64,000 nt of DNA, taken from a virus (taxonomy: Duplodnaviria; Caudoviricetes). The notes beneath the pieces are model-generated. The model saw nothing but the letters and a program-made list of their open reading frames with translations, searched no databases and was not told the DNA's origin. The stretch lies in IMG/VR virus record IMGVR_UViG_3300021400_000063; one strand, given 5' to 3'. A program made the translations under genes and the position numbers. Positions 3,088-28,828 of the stretch are shown one piece after another (position 1 is the first letter of the stretch; every line of letters begins with the position of its first letter).

Positions 3088-4071
3088 TCATTTTTTCTCC
3101 TGTGCTTTTAACCAATTATTCTTACGTTTCTTATCGTTTCGTTTTCTAGCAAAACGTTTATAAGCACGAACAATATTTGGAGCTGTTTTATCTGTTAAGA
3201 AACCAAATATCTGATCAATCGAAACAAAGTTAAGTACCAAATCTTTAACACCTGATACTATAGTTTTAATACCTTCTTTCTTTCGTTCTTTTATTTCATT
3301 TCTAACATAGCCATTGTAAGATCTAGTTTGACCTTCTCTTACCATAGCTATAAATGGTGTAGTTAAACCTTCACGTACATCATTACGATAATAAGCAGCA
3401 TTAGGTTTACTATTAAACATAAGATAACCCGTTAATGGTGAAATCATGAATGGTATAGGTCCAACATCGATTCCATTATCATTAACCCAAAATGATTTAA
3501 TAAAGACATTTCCATTTTCAGAAATAATATCAAAAATTAATCTTTCCGATTTTACATCATGATGTTTAGATTTAATGTCTTCATACTTAATATATTCTAT
3601 AAGAATATTATTAAGTTCATTGTTTTCATTAGATCCATGGACCAATTTTATTTTTTCATTATGATCCAGATATCTAATCTCCATAGCATTAATATTATCC
3701 AATTGCGAATCAAACTCACTATAGGAATATAATCCAGAATTAATACCATTAGATTTTGTTCTATAACAGTCAGTTTCATGCATATTTATTTGGATTCCAT
3801 TCTGAATCATCAAGTCCTGATTCTCTGGCTCTTCCATCATAGCAACACCTGTTATAGCATCTTCTTCAGTTTCAAACAGAACTGTATTAAGTTCTGGTAT
3901 AACTGTAAGATTTTTACAAATAGGATAATTTGTAATATGATCATCTTTTATTATCTGAATTTGTTCAGCATCAGAATACACATTTTGAATATATCCTATT
4001 TTACCTTCTTCATCTATATACCATAATGGTTTTCTAGACAAAATTTTAATTTGATTAACATTTGTGAACAA
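3088..4071 (-). CDS. hypothetical protein (probable TTG start at 4071)
   Basis: Long ORF; AAGGAGG SD upstream of TTG 4071. Confidence 0.7.
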   Translation of the reverse strand: MFTNVNQIKILSRKPLWYIDEEGKIGYIQNVYSDAEQIQIIKDDHITNYPICKNLTVIPELNTVLFETEEDAITGVAMMEEPENQDLMIQNGIQINMHETDCYRTKSNGINSGLYSYSEFDSQLDNINAMEIRYLDHNEKIKLVHGSNENNELNNILIEYIKYEDIKSKHHDVKSERLIFDIISENGNVFIKSFWVNDNGIDVGPIPFMISPLTGYLMFNSKPNAAYYRNDVREGLTTPFIAMVREGQTRSYNGYVRNEIKERKKEGIKTIVSGVKDLVLNFVSIDQIFGFLTDKTAPNIVRAYKRFARKRNDKKRKNNWLKAQEKK

Positions 4072-4231
4072 TTGACTTTGCCTCCTTACTTCCTGCAACT
4101 ATAGTTGTTTTAGATTTCCATTCTTCAAAAGAATTTTGAATCTGTATAGCACAAGATGTTGGAATAATTCCTTCCATAGCTTTAGTTGTTACTTCATCCA
4201 CCAATGTTTGAAATTTTTCATAATAAGTCAT
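4055..4231 (-). CDS. hypothetical 58-aa protein (not in ORF track)
   Basis: GAGGAGGT SD, ATG 4231, TAA 4055-4057; early promoter motif upstream. Confidence 0.7.
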   Translation of the reverse strand: MTYYEKFQTLVDEVTTKAMEGIIPTSCAIQIQNSFEEWKSKTTIVAGSKEAKSIVHKC

Positions 4232-4348
4232 ATTTACTTACCTCCTCAAATATTTCTTATTCATAAATATAATATATTAAGAAAAAATAAATAAAAAGAG
4301 GCGGATTTATTCCGCCTCTTTTCTCAAAACATTGTTACAAATTACAGC

Positions 4349-4555
4349 TTAGTTAGCAGCTTTTGGAGCTACCTTAGCAGCTTTTGGAGCTTTCTTTGTA
4401 ACTCTTCCGAGTAAGAAAGATCCTACTGTAAGAATTCCAGCTCCACCAGCAACTACAACTTTTGTTGTTTTGCTACTTGCTTTTACATCCTTTGATACTT
4501 TTGAAGGGATGCTCTTGATTGTTGTAACGAACTTGTTTTCTTTTGTGTCTGCCAT
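4349..4555 (-). CDS. small membrane protein with Lys/Ala/Pro-rich tail
   Basis: AGGAGG SD; Gly-rich TM segment; KKAPKAAKVAPKAAN tail; own terminator near 4290-4324. Confidence 0.75.
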   Translation of the reverse strand: MADTKENKFVTTIKSIPSKVSKDVKASSKTTKVVVAGGAGILTVGSFLLGRVTKKAPKAAKVAPKAAN

Positions 4556-21067: not shown

Positions 21068-21433
21068 ATGGACAATATAGAAATTAAGAATTTCTTACGT
21101 TCTATTAAACAAATTGAAATTGGTAGAAGTGAAACATGTAAACATATTCCTTTGAAATATATAAATTTTATGTTTAAAGATTTCGGATATGTTCCAAGTA
21201 ATCGATTTATACAATCTAAGAAATTCAAACCAAGTGTATTTGGAATGGATTTAGATGGTGACGTTATAACTGCTACATCTAGAAATCCTTTTAAATCAAA
21301 ATATGTTTACGAACTCGTAGTTGATGTTGAAAGAAAATATTTTACGATTGTTCGTATAGTTCATTACATAAATAATTTTTGTTATAACGATTACCTTGCA
21401 AAAAGACCATGTGAAGTAGCTAAAACAATGTAA
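21068..21433 (+). CDS. hypothetical protein
   Basis: GAGGTG SD; followed by bidirectional terminator 21432-21470. Confidence 0.7.
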   Translation: MDNIEIKNFLRSIKQIEIGRSETCKHIPLKYINFMFKDFGYVPSNRFIQSKKFKPSVFGMDLDGDVITATSRNPFKSKYVYELVVDVERKYFTIVRIVHYINNFCYNDYLAKRPCEVAKTM

Positions 21434-21468
21434 AAAAATAAGGGGGATATGATTCCCCCTTATTTTTT

Positions 21469-22154
21469 TTAAAGATCATAGATTTTTGTAGCAATCATAT
21501 CAGCATGATGGAGAAGTAAAACTTCAGGATATCGTTCACTCATCGTACTAAAATTCTGCATTTCAGTATTAGAAACACCGAATACACCTCATATGATAAG
21601 CGATAGCAATTTGCCAAGGTTCCGGTATTAATTCACCAACACCTTCAATATTTAATAAACGTCTTAAGCTTTCAGCACCATGTTCAATTCCATTATACCC
21701 ATTATTATAAGCATATTTAAATGAATCGTCGCCTTTTTTATCATCTTTTACAAGTTTGTATTTGCCAACTTTACAGATATCATGGAACAAACATGCTATT
21801 GGATTAACGTCAGAAGCTTGTATTCCATAATGAATTGAAGTTCTTATAGCTGCTAAATATACAGCTAATGAATGGTCTATTAAGCCTCCTTTGTAAGCAC
21901 CATGATATTTAGTAGAAGCTGGTTCATTAAAGAAAGTGCAATATTTAGTTAAGATTTTAGATATAGCCTTTTTAATTAATTTATCTTCTTCAGCATTTAA
22001 TGAATAAAATAAATCGTTTTTCAATAATGTTAAGATTTTACCATTAGAATCATTGTTTCTTTCTTCATTAGATAAATGCTTACAAATCTTTATTTCATTT
22101 TGAATCCGAAATTCTTTAGATCGTCCTTTTTTTTGATTCTAAAAAGTTTTTCAT
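21469..22154 (-). CDS. HD-domain phosphohydrolase requiring two +1 shifts (AGG at 22125-22127 and 21587-21589); about 227 aa when repaired
   Basis: PASTKYHG..GGLIDHS, LFHDICK, HGAES, then YHM-[A]-GVFG...LLHHADMIAT in the +1 frame; ATG 22154 has an AAGGAG SD and joins via KK-[A]-GRS. Confidence 0.8.
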
Positions 22155-22158
22155 ATTT

Positions 22159-22803
22159 TTACTCCTTAAATATATCTATTTGATGTTTTCGATAAAGTTT
22201 AGATTCATCTCTTGTTCCAGTTTTCATTTCTGCTACACACTGTAATAATTTAGGATATTTGCGTGTAATTTCTTCATTATCCGAAAGACTAGATTTTAAT
22301 TTATAAAATGGTTTATTTGTAAATGCTATTGGATATGACTCATTACGTGATGGATAAGAAATCGTAATTATGTATGTTTTCCTCCATCCTATACGTTTAT
22401 CCGGTTTCTCATCATAACACCAAGTGTTTAAATAATCCCAGTTAAATTCTTTATCCCAATAAGCCCATTTTTTATATACCCATTCTGCAAATTGCTTAAG
22501 ATTTTTAAGTTTAGCAGATTGTTCCATTGCTTCTGTTACAGTCATCATGCTTGCAGCTGGTCTGATTGTTACAGTATTAATGTGTAGTGAAATAAAATCT
22601 AAAATTTTCGATCCGGTGGTTGTGAAGATATTTTTAATAGATAAAAATATATTTTTAAAGAATAATATTATTTTTGGAGTTTTAATATCATGTATAAGAT
22701 ATTTTAATATACATTTATTCGCACTCATAACCATATATTCTCCCATTATACGTCGTTGATATTCATCCCATGATTCTTTTTCTGGATTATATTCTTCGTT
22801 CAT
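22159..22803 (-). CDS. hypothetical protein
   Basis: AAGGAGG SD; operon context. Confidence 0.75.
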   Translation of the reverse strand: MNEEYNPEKESWDEYQRRIMGEYMVMSANKCILKYLIHDIKTPKIILFFKNIFLSIKNIFTTTGSKILDFISLHINTVTIRPAASMMTVTEAMEQSAKLKNLKQFAEWVYKKWAYWDKEFNWDYLNTWCYDEKPDKRIGWRKTYIITISYPSRNESYPIAFTNKPFYKLKSSLSDNEEITRKYPKLLQCVAEMKTGTRDESKLYRKHQIDIFKE

Positions 22804-22815
22804 AAAGTTTCCTCC

Positions 22816-23133
22816 TTATTTTAAACAAAGTTTTTCATACCAAGTTTTTCTATTTTCTCTATCATAAATATAAATAGAGTATAAATAATCTTTAGGATTA
22901 TCAACAATGTTATTTTTTATTATTAATTGTGCTGCTTTATAAGCAGCTTCCCATGAGCATTTAATTGTATAATAATACCTATTATCGATTCCATTTCTAT
23001 GATAAGAGATATCTCCGAATATTTGATATAATTTTCCAAGGTCTCTTTTACTTTCTCTAAGTAAATAGTTTACTTTATTGTAAAAACCTGATGGATTACG
23101 GTGATGTTCACCATTTCTAAATTTTACAGCCAT
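22816..23133 (-). CDS. hypothetical protein
   Basis: AAGGAGG SD; operon context. Confidence 0.7.
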   Translation of the reverse strand: MAVKFRNGEHHRNPSGFYNKVNYLLRESKRDLGKLYQIFGDISYHRNGIDNRYYYTIKCSWEAAYKAAQLIIKNNIVDNPKDYLYSIYIYDRENRKTWYEKLCLK

Positions 23134-23136
23134 AAT

Positions 23137-23700
23137 TTAAATCCTCCTTAAAAATCCTCTTTTAGGATAATGATCTATTTTAATTATATTATCTATAAGA
23201 GGATTTATTTGTTTTAATAAAAATTTTTCACAAATTTTATATTCTGTTTCAGATAGTCTGATATCAGTGAAAGTTTTTTCACAAAACGTATCTCGATAAA
23301 CTATTAATTCTGGTAATCTTTGTATAAATTTAATTTTTTGAAAATTATCGTATACTGAACAATATTCATTTATTATTTCATTCATATTGGAATAACTATA
23401 GTTTCGATATCCGAAACATAAATGATAATATATTATGAATAAATTATTCTCTAACTGTCTACGATCTTTTCCAAAGAATATCATAGTTTCTTTTAATTCA
23501 TTTAAGAATTCTGAATGAAATCTGATTAAATAAAACCCTTCAAATTTACAATAATTAAAAAGTTGCATTTTATTTTTAATCATATTAGATGGTTGATCAT
23601 ATACAGGTTTTATTAGTTGTAATGTAGTTACATCTTCATTAAAACCATAATATTTATATTTTTCATATAATTCATCATTGTGCTGTTCTTCGTACATCAT
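23137..23700 (-). CDS. hypothetical protein
   Basis: Long ORF in a tightly packed minus-strand operon. Confidence 0.65.
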   Translation of the reverse strand: MMYEEQHNDELYEKYKYYGFNEDVTTLQLIKPVYDQPSNMIKNKMQLFNYCKFEGFYLIRFHSEFLNELKETMIFFGKDRRQLENNLFIIYYHLCFGYRNYSYSNMNEIINEYCSVYDNFQKIKFIQRLPELIVYRDTFCEKTFTDIRLSETEYKICEKFLLKQINPLIDNIIKIDHYPKRGFLRRI

Positions 23701-24013
23701 CCCAAAACTTCCTCAAATTGTCAGTTGTATCAAGATCATAAAGCATTCTGGCTACATTTGATACATGTCCTTCTGTAGAGTTTTCCATAATTCTTGTAAC
23801 AGTTGATAATTGTGTCACTGTAATATAATCTAAGGAATTATGTGCATTCGCAATATCTGCTAAATTTTTATAAATAGATTTATTATTAGTTATATGACGA
23901 GCTACAAAAATTTTAGCTTCTTTTTCATTCTTAGCTTTAGTTATAAATACCATTTCTGTTAATCTTATAGATACTAGATAAATTTTATTTTCTTCATTAA
24001 TCTTTTCGTTCAT
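23675..24013 (-). CDS. hypothetical protein
   Basis: Overlaps both neighbours in the operon. Confidence 0.65.
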   Translation of the reverse strand: MNEKINEENKIYLVSIRLTEMVFITKAKNEKEAKIFVARHITNNKSIYKNLADIANAHNSLDYITVTQLSTVTRIMENSTEGHVSNVARMLYDLDTTDNLRKFWDDVRRTAQ

Positions 24014-24383
24014 AATAGTTTACCTTCTTTCCTTTAAATAATTTATTTAAATCTTTTTCTAGTCTATCTGGATTTAAATACATTGTTTCCATCCCACAAG
24101 AAAAAGCTCCACCACGTCTTGTTAATATAATTTCATAAACAGTATCATCTTTTCTATTGAAAATTACATTAGCACAAGTATAACCAGGAATTCTTAAATA
24201 CCAAAAATAATATTTTTCACTATCTTTATTATCAAGATAAGTTCCTATAATAGGTTCACCATCTTTTGCGAAAATATATGTATTCATATATTCTAAATTA
24301 CATTGTTTAGGATCTCTAAATTTATCCATATATTCTGTAATTTCACATACTAAATCGTTACACATAAGTATTAAATCCTCCAT
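23997..24383 (-). CDS. hypothetical protein
   Basis: First gene of the minus-strand operon. Confidence 0.65.
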   Translation of the reverse strand: MEDLILMCNDLVCEITEYMDKFRDPKQCNLEYMNTYIFAKDGEPIIGTYLDNKDSEKYYFWYLRIPGYTCANVIFNRKDDTVYEIILTRRGGAFSCGMETMYLNPDRLEKDLNKLFKGKKVNYYERKD

Positions 24384-24765
24384 AAATTTAAAGAGTAATA
24401 TATAAATTTATATGAATTAAAATAACTATTTATAGATTTTTAAGATATCTATTTTTAAAAATTAAATATTTATTTTACAATGTAGTAAAGTACAATAGTT
24501 TAAAAATAATTGATTTTTGATTTTAGATATTATAAAAATGATTAAATTATTTAAAAATATGTTTAAAAATGTGCATTTTTTATAAAAATATTATAACATA
24601 TAGATATACTTGTGAGAAAATAACGCGTTTTTAATTAAGTATATTAAATTCACAATCTTATTCCGAATTTCAGCATTTTTATGATAGCAATTGATTGAAA
24701 TTGTATGCTTTCGGAATAATAATTTTTTACATACATTACCACAAAGTAATGTATTAAACATATAT

Positions 24766-24855
24766 GGGTGAGCAGACTGTGTTTGGTGTGCAGTGTTTCA
24801 GATTGTGCTTATGCTAGTCTGATTTCGGCGTGCGGTTCAAATCCCACCTCACCCG
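24766..24855 (+). tRNA. atypical tRNA-His(GTG)-like RNA with an enlarged anticodon loop
   Basis: GGGTGAG/CTCACCC acceptor stem, GGTTCAAATCC T-loop, TCAGA-TTGTG-CTTATGCTAG-TCTGA anticodon arm. Confidence 0.5.
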
Positions 24856-24865
24856 CTTTATTTAT

Positions 24866-24938
24866 GTCTCTTTACTTCAGTTGGTAGAAGGGTAGACTGT
24901 TAATCTATTGGTCCTAGGTTCGAGTCCTAGAAGAGACG
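24866..24938 (+). tRNA. tRNA-Asn(GTT), CCA not encoded
   Basis: Canonical cloverleaf: GTCTCTT/AAGAGAC, CTTC/GAAG, GTAGA-CTGTTAA-TCTAT, CTAGG-TTCGAGT-CCTAG. Confidence 0.93.
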
Positions 24939-25109
24939 TATTAATTTGGAATCTCGTATTCGTCTCAACAAATTATAGGGCGTGTGATGATGGATATGAA
25001 TAAAATACATTAAAAAAAAATAATTAGTGTATAATAGTTATCGTATTATCGACACTAAATAAAATCTACTCCGAAGATGCATCGGAAAATGTAAGATTTC
25101 AAATTATTT

Positions 25110-25198
25110 GGAGCGTTCGCATAGTCCGGTCGAGTGCAGTAGTCTTGAAAACTACCGATTCCGCAAGGTTTCCGAAAGTTCGAATCTTTCACGCTCCG
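25110..25198 (+). tRNA. tRNA-Ser(TGA) with long variable arm
   Basis: GGAGCGT/ACGCTCC, GTAGT-CTTGAAA-ACTAC, variable arm, GAAAG-TTCGAAT-CTTTC, G73. Confidence 0.93.
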
Positions 25199-25369
25199 TC
25201 CAAGTTGTTACATATAACACTCTGGTCTAGTTGACAAAAGATTATATTAATCTTTGTAATTTTACATAAACCTCTCTTATATAAACATTAAATTCTCCAG
25301 CACTAATGTCGTACATTGTGCATTTATTTTTCTTCCATCTAATTATAGATGTTTATTATATATTTCTTA

Positions 25370-25439
25370 GGTGAGTAAATTATTAGGATATAGATTTACT
25401 TATCTATATAAGTTGTAGGTTCGAATCCTACTCTCACCA
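25370..25439 (+). tRNA. degenerate tRNA-like RNA (no D stem, 8-nt anticodon loop)
   Basis: GGTGAG/CTCACC, GTAGG-TTCGAAT-CCTAC T arm, TATAGA-TTTACTTA-TCTATA. Confidence 0.5.
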
Positions 25440-25444
25440 ATCTC

Positions 25445-25562
25445 GGGTTGCCTTTTACGGATTTATATCCGTTGTGATCCGGCACGTGTGGTTACCGACG
25501 TGAGGAAACGGTAAAATAGTAAATCTCGTACGAGTGGAACCCTGGGTTATTCCCAGGGTTCC
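25445..25562 (+). ncRNA. candidate structured RNA (hairpin plus H-type pseudoknot) ending in a strong hairpin
   Basis: GC-rich island; stems listed in findings. Confidence 0.45.
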
Positions 25563-25670
25563 TATATTTTGCAAAAGGTCTATGATAGTTGATATATTAT
25601 AATAATGAATAAGGAGAATGTAAAAAGTTAAAATAAATCAAATCTCCTTATAATCGAGGAGAAAATTATT

Positions 25671-25937
25671 ATGATTATCGATCTTACAAAAACTATAAAT
25701 AATCTTCATATTGAGGAGAATGAACTTGATAATGAAAAGATTATTAGTTGGTTCTTTATGAATAAAAAATTCATAGAGAAATTAGTTAGTAGCTATATCC
25801 AAAATTTTGGATGGGCATTTGGAGGTGCATCTGAAATGTATCTCGATATTAAGCAGCTTTATAAGGAGCATCCTTATAATTTGGAAGATAAGTATGGTGA
25901 AGAATCACCATCAATTTATATTCCAATTGCTGCTTAA
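25671..25937 (+). CDS. hypothetical protein (early cassette)
   Basis: Promoter motif, GAGGAG SD, terminator. Confidence 0.75.
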   Translation: MIIDLTKTINNLHIEENELDNEKIISWFFMNKKFIEKLVSSYIQNFGWAFGGASEMYLDIKQLYKEHPYNLEDKYGEESPSIYIPIAA

Positions 25938-26005
25938 ATAAGGGAGAATAAAAATCTCCCTTATTTTTTTTCTTATATATTATATTTATAGGAGGTAAGT
26001 GTAAT

Positions 26006-26329
26006 ATGCTTACATTAATATTTGGTAATAAAAGTAAAGAAGATGCTCTTGCTATGAGAGATCTATTCTGTTCAAGTGCAACAGGAATTCCAGGATTTAT
26101 TGAGAATGAAATTTTGATTTCATCTCAATTGACAAAATCTGACGGAACAGTATTTGAAGATGGTGAATCTGAATACAATGTTTGTGGTAAAGATTACAAA
26201 CATGTTGTTATGGTTTGTTTATCTAGTGATAATCAACCGGAAGGAACACCAGAATTTGATTTTGGAATCGATTGTTCAGATCAGGATATGACTAAATATC
26301 TCGATTTGCTTAAAAACTTGAAAGGATAA
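26006..26329 (+). CDS. hypothetical acidic protein (early cassette)
   Basis: Promoter motif, AGGAGG SD, terminator. Confidence 0.75.
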   Translation: MLTLIFGNKSKEDALAMRDLFCSSATGIPGFIENEILISSQLTKSDGTVFEDGESEYNVCGKDYKHVVMVCLSSDNQPEGTPEFDFGIDCSDQDMTKYLDLLKNLKG

Positions 26330-26424
26330 CAATCGATTTTATCTATAGAAAGAGAATGCATTAGTATTCTCTTTCTTTTTTTATTACTATTGATATATTT
26401 AAATATATTAAGTGAGGTGAAACT

Positions 26425-27120
26425 ATGGTAAATAAATATTCATTAGATAAAAAATTAAAAGACAGAGAAAATGCTGCTGTTTTAAATGAAATTGAAGATG
26501 CTAGACGATTTGTAAGATATTTTGTAAATCTTATGGAAGGTATTTTAAATTATGAATATGACGAATTAAAGTCATATTTTGAAGAAGATAAAACTGAAGT
26601 CGATATACGGATAGTTGAAAATCGATATGAATTAGTAACTGCTGGTATGAAAAGTTGCTGGATATCAGCATGTGTTAAATTATGTCATGAAGATTATACA
26701 TATCCTAAGTTAAAAGTTGTTGAATTTAAAGTTTATGATAAATTTTTCAATTATACGATGAATATTGATCGGTTTATTTATGGTTCTATAGATGATGAAG
26801 AATTTGTTACCGATTATTTGCAAATTATAAAAAGTGAGATATTTAAAGATTTTAAATATAAATGGTCTTATAATAAAGATAAAATCTTTAAACGTTATAT
26901 TATGGATAAGAATATTACTCCTTCTGAGTATATTATTGGATGTATAAATAAATATATTTATGATTGTATTATTAAGCCTAAATCTAAAACAATGACTTAT
27001 GACGAATTTATAAATTCAGAATTTAAATTCGATGTTGATAAAAAGACTCAACGAATATTCAATAGATATTTCTTTGAAAATATTCCAAATATAAAAAGGA
27101 GAATAATAACACATGCATAA
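26425..27120 (+). CDS. hypothetical protein
   Basis: GAGGTG SD; long ORF. Confidence 0.7.
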   Translation: MVNKYSLDKKLKDRENAAVLNEIEDARRFVRYFVNLMEGILNYEYDELKSYFEEDKTEVDIRIVENRYELVTAGMKSCWISACVKLCHEDYTYPKLKVVEFKVYDKFFNYTMNIDRFIYGSIDDEEFVTDYLQIIKSEIFKDFKYKWSYNKDKIFKRYIMDKNITPSEYIIGCINKYIYDCIIKPKSKTMTYDEFINSEFKFDVDKKTQRIFNRYFFENIPNIKRRIITHA

Positions 27121-27586
27121 ACGTAAATATGAAAGATTTCTACTGAATTTATTGATTGAAAGAACGTTATTTATTTATAATATAGTTCTTTCTACTCAAT
27201 TTAATATAACGAAAAAATATAAGAATAAATGTATACGTTTATTAGTAGATATCCAAAAATATTTCAAAAATATAAGATATCAAAATTTTGATGTAAAATC
27301 TGTAAAATATGAATTTAATCAATATAAAATTTTAATGAATAAAACTGATTATTTGTTGAAAACATTTGATAAAATTGATAAAAATAAAAATATCAGAAAT
27401 ATTTGGTGTATAAATTTCAGCAAATATAATACTGAAGGACAATTTCCAATGTTTTATAATCCTAATTATGATAAAAATTATATTAGAGATTTTGTTAAAT
27501 ATTTCATAAATTTAACTAATATAAAATCTTTGATAGATGAAGAAATGAAAATTATTTATTATACTAATAAGTTTTATTTATTATAA
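27113..27586 (+). CDS. hypothetical basic protein
   Basis: AAGGAG SD, overlap with the upstream gene. Confidence 0.6.
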   Translation: MHKRKYERFLLNLLIERTLFIYNIVLSTQFNITKKYKNKCIRLLVDIQKYFKNIRYQNFDVKSVKYEFNQYKILMNKTDYLLKTFDKIDKNKNIRNIWCINFSKYNTEGQFPMFYNPNYDKNYIRDFVKYFINLTNIKSLIDEEMKIIYYTNKFYLL

Positions 27587-27618
27587 AAATAGGGAGAAAA
27601 ACTCCCTATTTTTTTATA

Positions 27619-28828
27619 TTATTCTAAAAATGCTACTGTTACAGCTTTTTTCGACCTAGTTATAGCAGTGTAAGTCCATTTGTTATAGAAGTCTAGAGTT
27701 TTTCCATGTATATCCATTACTACTAACGGATGTTCATATTCAGAACCTTGACTTTTATGTACTGTGAATGCGTAACCAAAATCAATCATACCAACTTCAC
27801 CGAGAGCATCATCTTCAAGTTCATTATTATATAATTCTTCAATAAATGCTTCTTTACTAGGATCTTTTTGATACTGTTCAAATATTTCTCTAAAACATAC
27901 AGAATTAAAAACCATATTAGGATCTCCACAATCCATTAAGAAATCTGGAGTAAATTTAAGATTTAATAATTCCATATCGTTTTTATCTTCTATATAAGAA
28001 TCTTCTTTAACGTAACCTGTTAATCCATTAATAAGATAAATAGGAACGTCATTATATTCTAATTCGTAATTATAATTGTTTAAAAGACATAAAACTTTTT
28101 CACCTTTTTGAGGATAAATAGATTTATAACCTTTTTGTTCTCTAACCATTTGATTTAATATACGGCGTGTTTTATTAGCATAACATAAGATAACCGAATA
28201 ATCTCCAAGATGATCTTGAACTTTATCAAATGTAGTTACTAATGAGTTTTTACAATATCCCATAGGGAGTGGTTCACCATTACGAGCTTTCATAGCAAGA
28301 TCAAGAATTCCAGATTCATCAGACTGTCTCATAACTTGTGTTAAGAAAACATCCAGATTATTTGGATCTTCAACATACTTATTTGTACCGAAAACAGGTG
28401 GAACCTGACCAGGATCCATAAGTAACATAGTCGGTAAACCAAATGAAAGTATATCATTAAGCATAGCTTCATTAACCATTGAAGCTTCATCTATTACAAT
28501 TAATCTTATATTTGAAGGAACTCTATGCTTTTTATTAAATAAAAACGAATTTCCTTTTTTATAAACTGTATAAAATGTTTTATGAATAGTATTAGAGGGG
28601 TTTCCTTTAAGACGTAGAACCAACGATGCTTTAGCTGTTAAAGTTGCAAATATTACATCATTAATTGGTATACCTAACATCTTAATTATGGTATTTACTG
28701 TTGTTGATTTTCCTGTGCCTGGCTAAGCCACCAAGAGCAAATACCTGTTGGTTAAAACTATCAACAAAGTACCATTTGATTGCTTTCTTAATGGCTTGAA
28801 GCTGTCCGTCATTAAATTGGATAGCCAT
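27619..28828 (-). CDS. RecD/Dda-like SF1B helicase requiring a +1 shift at AGG 28718-28720
   Basis: ATG 28828 with AAGGAGGTG SD encodes FNDGQLQA..FALGGLA, then [A]-GTGKS Walker A in the +1 frame; TIHK, IDEASM, QVMRQ, YAFTVHKSQGSEY, YTAITRSK. Confidence 0.9.

Follow-up and report, generated by a model that had tools for sequence, protein, structure and literature searches.

How can two conserved genes be interrupted by three frame breaks and otherwise look like working genes? The question is raised by a 64,000-nucleotide stretch of viral DNA (IMG/VR record IMGVR_UViG_3300021400_000063, Caudoviricetes; the whole stretch is hereafter called the window), in which a gene for an HD-domain metal-dependent phosphohydrolase (21469..22154, minus strand) is broken twice and a gene for a Dda-like helicase (superfamily 1, RecD-type; 27619..28828, minus strand) once. 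A first-pass annotation, made from the sequence alone, had noticed that all three breaks are repaired if the A of an AGG codon is skipped, and had suggested programmed +1 frameshifting or a four-base reading of AGGN. We propose that the breaks are compensated by +1 ribosomal frameshifting at slowly decoded AGG codons, and that this one-base skip is the shortest form of a bypassed coding gap; we give this reading a probability of roughly 0.65. Compensation is highly probable at the helicase break, and at both HD breaks the odds are close to even, with at most a slight lean in its favour. The extra A's are real, fixed insertions with a non-random placement, and AGG is both rare and an arginine codon; we infer that the shift is ribosomal, takes place at AGG and is frequent enough to be useful.

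The window is AT-rich (28% G+C) and is part of a jumbo phage, a large gut phage. Contigs of its group come from animal-gut sources, sheep-rumen and pig-gut studies among them, and make strong use of Shine-Dalgarno sequences, and the phage GenBank collection held no near match to the window. The relatives compared here include G002, a 276-kilobase (kb) viral contig, 99% complete and colinear with the entire window at 78-97% nucleotide identity; G001, a 17.5-kb relative about 92% identical across the HD gene; and L037, a contig with 95% protein identity to the helicase of the window. Relatives without the extra A's stand at 87-96% nucleotide identity. The presence of the extra bases was judged throughout from independent assemblies.

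Three frame breaks at AGG codons

The HD gene is divided into three frame pieces: codons 1-9, an open reading frame (ORF) of 151 amino acids (aa; 21569-22024) with its upstream extension, and the last 39 codons. The restored product of 227 aa can be aligned over its full length to the intact 226-aa proteins of G001 and G002 and matches PHROG 28876 (metal-dependent phosphohydrolase); the Pfam HD match is weak. Break 1 (22125..22134, minus strand) is a run of eight adenines (A8, 22134-22127) ending in AAA-AGG-A, with AGG at 22127-22125. From the start codon, ATG 22154, frame 0 leads into TCA AAA AAA AGG ACG ATC TAA; with one A skipped, the reading continues as GGA (Gly10) CGA TCT and joins the 151-aa ORF. 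The caveat of the first-pass annotation that this site lies in an A8 run is borne out, the change being A7-to-A8 relative to G001 and G002, which both have A7; A8 is also present in the independent contigs L023, L024, L073 and L075.

Break 2 (21587..21589, minus strand) reads ATG-AGG-T, with AGG at 21589-21587. Frame 0 is CAT ATG AGG TGT ATT CGG TGT TTC TAA, and skipping the A at 21589 gives GGT (Gly189) GTA TTC GGT in a frame that runs to ...HHADMIATKIYDL, with its stop at 21469; the predicted junction peptide is ...AYHMGVFGVSNTEMQ with the shift, as against ...AYHMR in frame 0. The site is ATG-GGT in G001 and G002. The extra base is polymorphic: it is A, as first described, in the window, L023 and L024, and G (ATG-GGG-TGT) in L073 and L075, whose coding sequence otherwise matches that of the window across a region of ~770 nucleotides (nt). 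It is unlikely that a second mutation fell on exactly the inserted base by chance. The A/G pair fits a tuning of the shift site, by slippage in a G run followed by G-to-A or the reverse, and it also fits a local mutational hotspot. Both HD A's are present in 2 of 2 aligned loci, the 151-aa fragment is called on 10 of 10 contigs read, and the contigs compared show no diversity within the broken lineage besides the break-2 base. Synonymous and non-synonymous changes number 21:13 on the window branch, 7:6 on that of intact G001 and 18:9 on that of intact G002, so that the broken gene resembles the intact ones in this ratio, which lends the HD breaks indirect support; on the window branch there is no non-synonymous change past codon 120, and five synonymous ones lie beyond break 2.

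The helicase gene lies in two frame pieces, a 48-aa ORF (28682-28828) and a 353-aa ORF (27619-28680). Its intact orthologue in L037 matches PHROG 325 (Dda-like helicase) at 2.6e-82, and also Pfam AAA_30 and UvrD_C_2. Break 3 (28712..28723, minus strand) comprises GCC (28723-28721), AGG (28720-28718), CAC and a second AGG (28714-28712). Frame 0 reads GGT GGC TTA GCC AGG CAC AGG AAA; once the A at 28720 is skipped, GGC ACA GGA AAA TCA completes the P-loop GLAGTGKS, with a predicted junction peptide ...FALGGLAGTGK in place of ...GGLAR. L037 has GCC-GGG-ACA-GGA and an intact P-loop at this position. The 353-aa fragment is called on 18 contigs (ENA, JGI, NCBI and Logan records), and all seven that could be read carry GCC-AGG-CAC (7/7). 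GCC makes up ~5% of alanine codons.

At each of these minus-strand positions the repair by skipping the A of AGG was confirmed, and the restored frames recover the start behind AAGGAG, the HD end ...HHADMIATKIYDL and the GLAGTGKS Walker A motif. Exactly this A is lacking in G001 and G002 (HD) and in L037 (helicase), and it is present in independent assemblies. The AGG context also held up in a tally of frameshifts, which compared the whole 64-kb window with G002: among 45 indel clusters whose length is not divisible by three, the only ones inside genes are the three breaks, all of AGG type (3/3), and the rest are intergenic. Every break places a rare AGG in the old frame and a glycine codon in the +1 frame. 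In the long ORFs of the window, AGG accounts for 24 of 17,829 codons, or 1.35 per 1000 as compared with 18.8 for AGA, and several of these AGG codons lie in ribosome-binding-site overlaps. A random one-base insertion in the restored genes would give an in-frame AGG with a removable A in 1.0-1.5% of events, and the chance of three such events is ~3e-6; under a lenient test that accepts any in-frame AGG within six codons, the value is ~7% per event.

Selection on the helicase and the gaps at its P-loop

The 39 nt that follow break 3 (28681..28719, minus strand) encode GTGKSTTVNTIIK and contain no start codon before the ATG at 28680; ribosomes must therefore enter this stretch from upstream, in the shifted frame. 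Over 20 loci with seven kinds of break, and one intact gene, the stretch occurs in 13 nucleotide versions that specify the same 13 residues, and all variable positions (8/8) are third codon positions in the Walker A frame. Changes on the window branch of the helicase, polarised with L037 and G002, amount to 16 synonymous and 1 non-synonymous over codons 1-370. The sequence GCC-A-GGC-ACA-GGA was also found in seven contigs of a distinct clade (L093-L099, from several studies; tree support 1.0), whose flanking synonymous sites differ from those of the window. Within this clade, six full-length genes have 31 codons that vary only synonymously and 2 that change the amino acid (P = 6.6e-17 against neutrality), and the helicases of the window and L093 differ by 53 synonymous and 8 non-synonymous changes in 370 codons. 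Judged by these substitution patterns, helicase genes with break 3 are under strong purifying selection, the start-less stretch included, which is what translational +1 compensation predicts.

Break 3 is the shortest member, at 1 nt, of a family of coding gaps of 1-45 nt at the Ala36/Gly37 junction of the helicase. In relatives, this junction is occupied by gaps of 9, 9, 9, 13, 14, 43, 43 and 45 nt, and after each of them the GTGKS frame is intact. They comprise GCG[TAACTTGTT], GCG[TAAAGGTCT], GCG[TAGGGTGTC], GCG[TGATTATATAGTT] and a 14-nt variant of the last, two 43-nt gaps and the 45-nt gap of G002 (L008:2916-2960), and gaps of 9, 13, 14, 43 and 45 nt, nearly all stop-led, are spread over many gut-metagenome contigs (also L056-L072 and L078-L092). 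A stop or a hungry codon stands directly after the take-off codon, namely a stop in the 9-, 13-, 43- and 45-nt gaps and AGG in the 1-nt gaps. The stops are TAA, TAG or TGA, all three being used, and the exceptions to the stop-first rule are the 14-nt variant (one contig) and a variant in which TGA has become TGG. Read-through or stop reassignment was considered for the longer gaps and ruled out: three different stops are used and the lengths fall in all three modulo-3 classes, so that neither read-through nor a changed code can explain them.

A second 1-nt type, ACG-A-GGC (L059), lies two codons past the position of break 3, before the second glycine of the P-loop, and constitutes an independent fourth case; its product type '...GGLAGTRQVNN...' heads three protein clusters of 7, 11 and 2 member sequences. 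The 36-aa N-terminal fragment that results from the gaps is indexed in ~200 blocks of the assembly collection, pig-gut records included, and gapped genes therefore appear to be common. Three further junction variants were seen as N-terminal fragments only (proteins P0154, P0155 and P0157). One has two breaks, GCC-A-GGC and then GGG-T-AAG, the second of which brings a TAA into the shifted frame; another is a 43/45-type gap with its leading TGA changed to TGG; and the singleton P0157 has a P-loop that substitutions have destroyed and turned into AETEK-stop. A pattern search of IMG/VR for more junction variants returned only the known relative.

Four gap types take off from GCG, a codon that represents only 2.8% of alanine codons. 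Take-off and landing codons are matched (GCT/GCC) in the 45-nt gap, and the others land on GTT, GTC or TCT, with pyrimidines at positions 2 and 3 throughout, which are only near-cognate for tRNA-Ala. The 45-nt gap has no Shine-Dalgarno-like triplet 5-7 nt before its landing site; its folding has a z of -3.2, and a G/A difference among the 43-nt versions leaves the hairpin paired. The idea that the single A of the window is a remnant of the 45-nt or 9-nt gaps was dropped, no simple deletion deriving it.

Genes for HNH endonucleases flank the helicase in G002, L037 and other contigs, and none stands beside the helicase of the window. By analogy with T4 gene 60 and mobA, the gaps may protect a conserved target site at the DNA level. 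Synonymous changes cluster around the P-loop codons, and this clustering, together with the HNH neighbours, suggests that nuclease escape at the DNA level drives the variety. The HNH gene lies directly downstream of the helicase in G002 and L037 (regions L008:4109-4891 and L037 ~3610-4390), a place where the window has none. The last ~30 helicase codons of the window (27619-27710, minus strand) form a divergent allele, ...HGKTLDFYNKW...AFLE as compared with ...QDRPVTELFYSKF...AFMHD in G002 and L037, which is probably a recombination or homing tract. Upstream of the helicase gene, G002 carries a G+C-richer insert (L008:2370-2774) that is absent from the window and contains an ORF of 108-134 aa without a family match.

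The surroundings of the HD gene differ as well. Directly 3' of it, G001 and G002 have ~460-510 nt with two small genes, for a 59-aa membrane protein and an 81-aa protein (L001:1040-1490); these are missing from the window, where a terminator hairpin alone occupies 21440-21468. In G001 the orthologue of a neighbouring 121-aa ORF (L001:689-1006, corresponding to window 21068-21433) lacks the AG of window 21125-21126, which gives GGT AAG TGA. This 2-nt break is not of the AGG type and was seen in one contig only.

Proposed compensation at AGG and the alternatives

Each inserted A sits directly 5' of a glycine codon, by which the old-frame codon became the rare arginine codon AGG. It can be hypothesised that a ribosome that reaches this AGG would pause for the scarce tRNA-Arg, and that during the pause an abundant Gly-tRNA may occupy the A site on the overlapping GGN, one base forward; the frame would be restored and a share of the ribosomes would make the normal protein. 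At AAA-AGG-A the peptidyl-tRNA-Lys may first slip one base forward, in the style of Ty1, as tRNA-Lys on AAA can re-pair perfectly there. At GCC-AGG-C and ATG-AGG-T the shift would proceed without re-pairing, as in Ty3, GCC-A pairing at 2/3 positions. The old-frame tails may offer second chances: AGG CAC AGG in the helicase, where a shift at either AGG would retain the GxxxxGKS loop, and AGG ... CGG ... TAA at break 2. The longer gaps, mostly led by a stop instead of AGG, would have to be hopped over. At break 3, the Gly-Gly codons of the P-loop lead-in (GGT GGC, 28727..28732, minus strand) form GGUGG, a sequence similar to a Shine-Dalgarno element, 4 nt before the P-site codon, and it might act as a stimulator by analogy with prfB; the motif is not kept in the L093 clade, which has GGG GGT, and the HD sites have nothing comparable.

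A scan of the window and of the whole 276-kb G002 for AGG sites joining two open frames returned only ribosome-binding-site overlaps, antisense frames and ordinary gene boundaries (e.g. 32552). Neither sequence yielded a tRNA for AGGN, with an eight-base anticodon loop or with a CCU-type anticodon. ARAGORN and Rfam find only tRNA-Asn, tRNA-Ser and one weak tRNA-like match in the window; G002 has six tRNAs, none of them of this kind. The weak match, a third element beside the two tRNAs (25370-25439, plus strand), scores 27.4 bits, slightly below the Rfam threshold of 29; its D arm is weak, and ARAGORN does not call it. A tRNA-like gene of G002 (243277-243351; L033:10078-10150), ~10 kb before the start of the window, matches the Rfam tRNA model at 43 bits. 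The acceptor, D and T arms of this RNA are normal; the anticodon arm consists of a 5-bp stem and a 4-nt loop, UCUA, or has a 6-nt loop according to ARAGORN. Such a shortened loop leaves no usable anticodon, and this RNA is therefore not a decoding tRNA; as a frameshift agent it was rejected on account of its non-decoding anticodon arm.

Several observations weigh against compensation by frameshifting. The close relatives G001, G002 and L037 and more distant homologues are intact at the HD and/or helicase codons and no site is anciently conserved; the breaks are therefore recent, probably compensated insertions and not old regulatory sites. The HD gene requires two shifts in series, and as the yield is the product of two partial rates, little product would be made. 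Slippage would be a simple origin for break 1, which lies in an A run, and possibly for break 2, where a G allele exists and the change would be G3 to G4; A7-to-A8 is the commonest kind of inactivating slip. Among the AGG codons of the window that can be aligned to G002, 10 are AGG and 6 are AGA there, and 3 go the opposite way; moreover, a conserved in-frame copy of ATG-AGG-T, the seven bases of break 2, lies within the gene for an RNA polymerase subunit. Since such ordinary in-frame AGG codons specify arginine, any shift must be partial or context-dependent, and cannot be near-complete without added context. Local RNA structure is not significant at the three sites (z = -0.19, -1.73 and +1.03). 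With regard to the selection data, the +1 helicase allele of the window is known only as near-identical copies, and the synonymous variation flanking a mobile gap could have come from the intact genes that received it.

These points allow the first-pass claims on decoding to be sorted. The +1 recoding is supported in part, in the form of compensation, which the helicase selection data favour; its 'programmed' part, in the sense of a conserved regulatory site, falls since close relatives are intact. The caveat that AGG occurs in frame in intact genes was well founded, as the RNA polymerase subunit gene illustrates, and four-base decoding of AGGN found no support. A wider proposition, which we put forward tentatively and hold to be less likely than not, is that this group of gut jumbo phages or the ribosomes of their hosts routinely skip gaps of 1-45 nt beginning with a stop or AGG, as a general decoding property and not through a single recoding signal, and that the gaps arise and spread as DNA-level protection of conserved motifs from HNH homing endonucleases, with the one-base AGG gap as the minimal form. 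The HD sites would then show an ability not tied to one gene or nascent peptide, and a phage factor, for example the anticodon-less tRNA-like RNAs, would possibly help.

The principal alternative to compensatory frameshifting is that the HD and helicase genes are recent pseudogenes, inactivated not long ago in escape from defence or a homing nuclease, or as dispensable genes, with an AGG pattern that arose by mutation (slippage at A7 and at GG(G), then G-to-A). The intact relatives agree with decay, as do the plain A7-to-A8 change of break 1, the G allele of break 2, which fits G3-to-G4 slippage, the two shifts that the HD gene would need and the absence of internal diversity among the window's own alleles. 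Frame breaks do occur in the group, as the unrelated 2-nt break in the neighbouring small gene of G001 shows, and the singleton P0157 has lost its P-loop by substitution; a very recent inactivation of the HD gene is compatible with the data. For the helicase, however, decay is contradicted by the 31:2 ratio in the broken clade and by the third-position-only variation of the start-less stretch. It also leaves unexplained why four breaks, L059 counted, fall at the codon boundary before a glycine with an extra A, and why the sole in-gene difference in the ~770-nt HD region is the inserted base. Neither gene shows an excess of non-synonymous change on the window branch (helicase 16:1, HD 21:13), and the restored frames contain no further breaks. 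We consider decay of the two genes to be rather unlikely.

Correction could also be achieved at the RNA level if the phage or host RNA polymerase slipped and some transcripts were one base shorter. Polymerases are established to slip on A/T runs (PMC5009743), and the A8 of break 1 is a run of this type. The window also encodes its own RNA polymerase subunits. Yet efficient slippage is usually reported for runs longer than A8, breaks 2 and 3 (GAGG, CAGG) and ACG-A-GGC provide no run to slip on, and the 9- to 45-nt gaps at the helicase junction are left unexplained, which makes this route very unlikely. A dedicated tRNA that reads AGGN as a four-base codon, for glycine or arginine, or a reassignment of AGG in the host, would suit the three sites and L059, all of which can be read as AGGN with the correct frame after it; for AGGU in the mitochondrial cox1 of Perkinsus, something comparable has been proposed (PMC5009743), and the phage group does encode odd tRNA-like RNAs. 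The window and G002 yielded no tRNA with an enlarged loop or a CCU-type anticodon, however, the odd tRNA-like RNA has a shortened and not an enlarged anticodon loop, and in-frame AGG, which exchanges freely with AGA, aligns with AGA or AGG in relatives, which makes three-base decoding as arginine the rule; we regard this explanation as highly improbable. A sequencing or assembly error in the record of the window might be suspected at the one site in a homopolymer run, but contigs that were assembled independently, from other samples and by other pipelines, contain these three extra bases as well, and the chance of such an error is negligible.

Known recoding systems and significance

A close precedent in bacteria is found in Escherichia coli, where shifting on CCC-AGG-C, unaided by any further signal, suppresses a +1 insertion in rpoB at ~5% (Huseby et al. 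2020, PMC7022156). The cases resemble one another in that a one-base insertion in an important gene is, or would be, followed by a +1 shift as a rare AGG enters the A site, for which seven bases suffice at a few percent (PMC7022156). The rpoB allele is a laboratory or clinical resistance mutant in which AGG lies three codons after the insertion and a slippery CCC occupies the P site; here, in contrast, natural insertions create the AGG directly, with AAA, AUG and GCC as the P-site codons, and the arrangement persists through divergence.

In yeast, Ty1 (CUU-AGG-C), Ty3 (GCG-AGU-U) and antizyme (GCG-UGA-C) are +1 sites with a slowly decoded A-site codon (PMC5009743). In Ty1 the +1 codon is GGC (Gly), and AAA-AGG-A of break 1 permits re-pairing in the Ty1 style; GCC-AGG-C and ACG-AGG-C, whose P-site codons are rare and read by wobble, lack re-pairing and recall Ty3, which has an alanine codon in the P site, and the stop-led helicase gaps begin with GCG-stop as in antizyme. 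These eukaryotic sites are conserved and serve a second product or regulation, whereas in the present case only the gene would be restored and relatives are without the sites. In the mitochondrial cox1 of Perkinsus, ten breaks at AGGU are read as glycine, by frameshift or as a quadruplet (PMC5009743). In both cases the genes are intact apart from recurrent A-GGY breaks in front of glycine codons. In that organelle AGG is not known to be used otherwise, whereas here it is also a working arginine codon. The idea of 'savior indels' is covered in the same review (PMC5009743).

The helicase junction family is an analogue of the T4 gene 60 bypass (50 nt, with MobA cassettes), and not a member of it. 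Both have a stop or a hungry AGG directly after take-off, a gap of variable length and frame, HNH genes that adjoin in relatives, and a gene that stays under selection; in some gene 60-type cassettes, a hungry AGG replaces the take-off stop (Manning and Atkins, bioRxiv 10.1101/2022.08.31.505936). Every published cassette lies in a topoisomerase gene, whereas the present gaps lie in a Dda-like helicase, have unrelated sequences and take off from alanine codons; their landing triplets are mostly near-matches, and in the window the gap is a single base with no HNH gene beside it.

Compensation of frameshifts at a hungry AGG was known before from a laboratory rpoB mutant and from yeast retroelements, and the window offers a natural candidate case; for phages or bacteria, we found no described natural example of such compensation persisting over evolutionary time. 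One-base frameshifts and longer ribosome hops are here linked at the same codon, and the graded natural series of 1, 9, 13, 14, 43 and 45 nt provides material for asking what separates a frameshift from a bypass. For the annotation of phage genomes, the finding carries a warning: P-loop genes that appear to be 'split' in phages may be whole.

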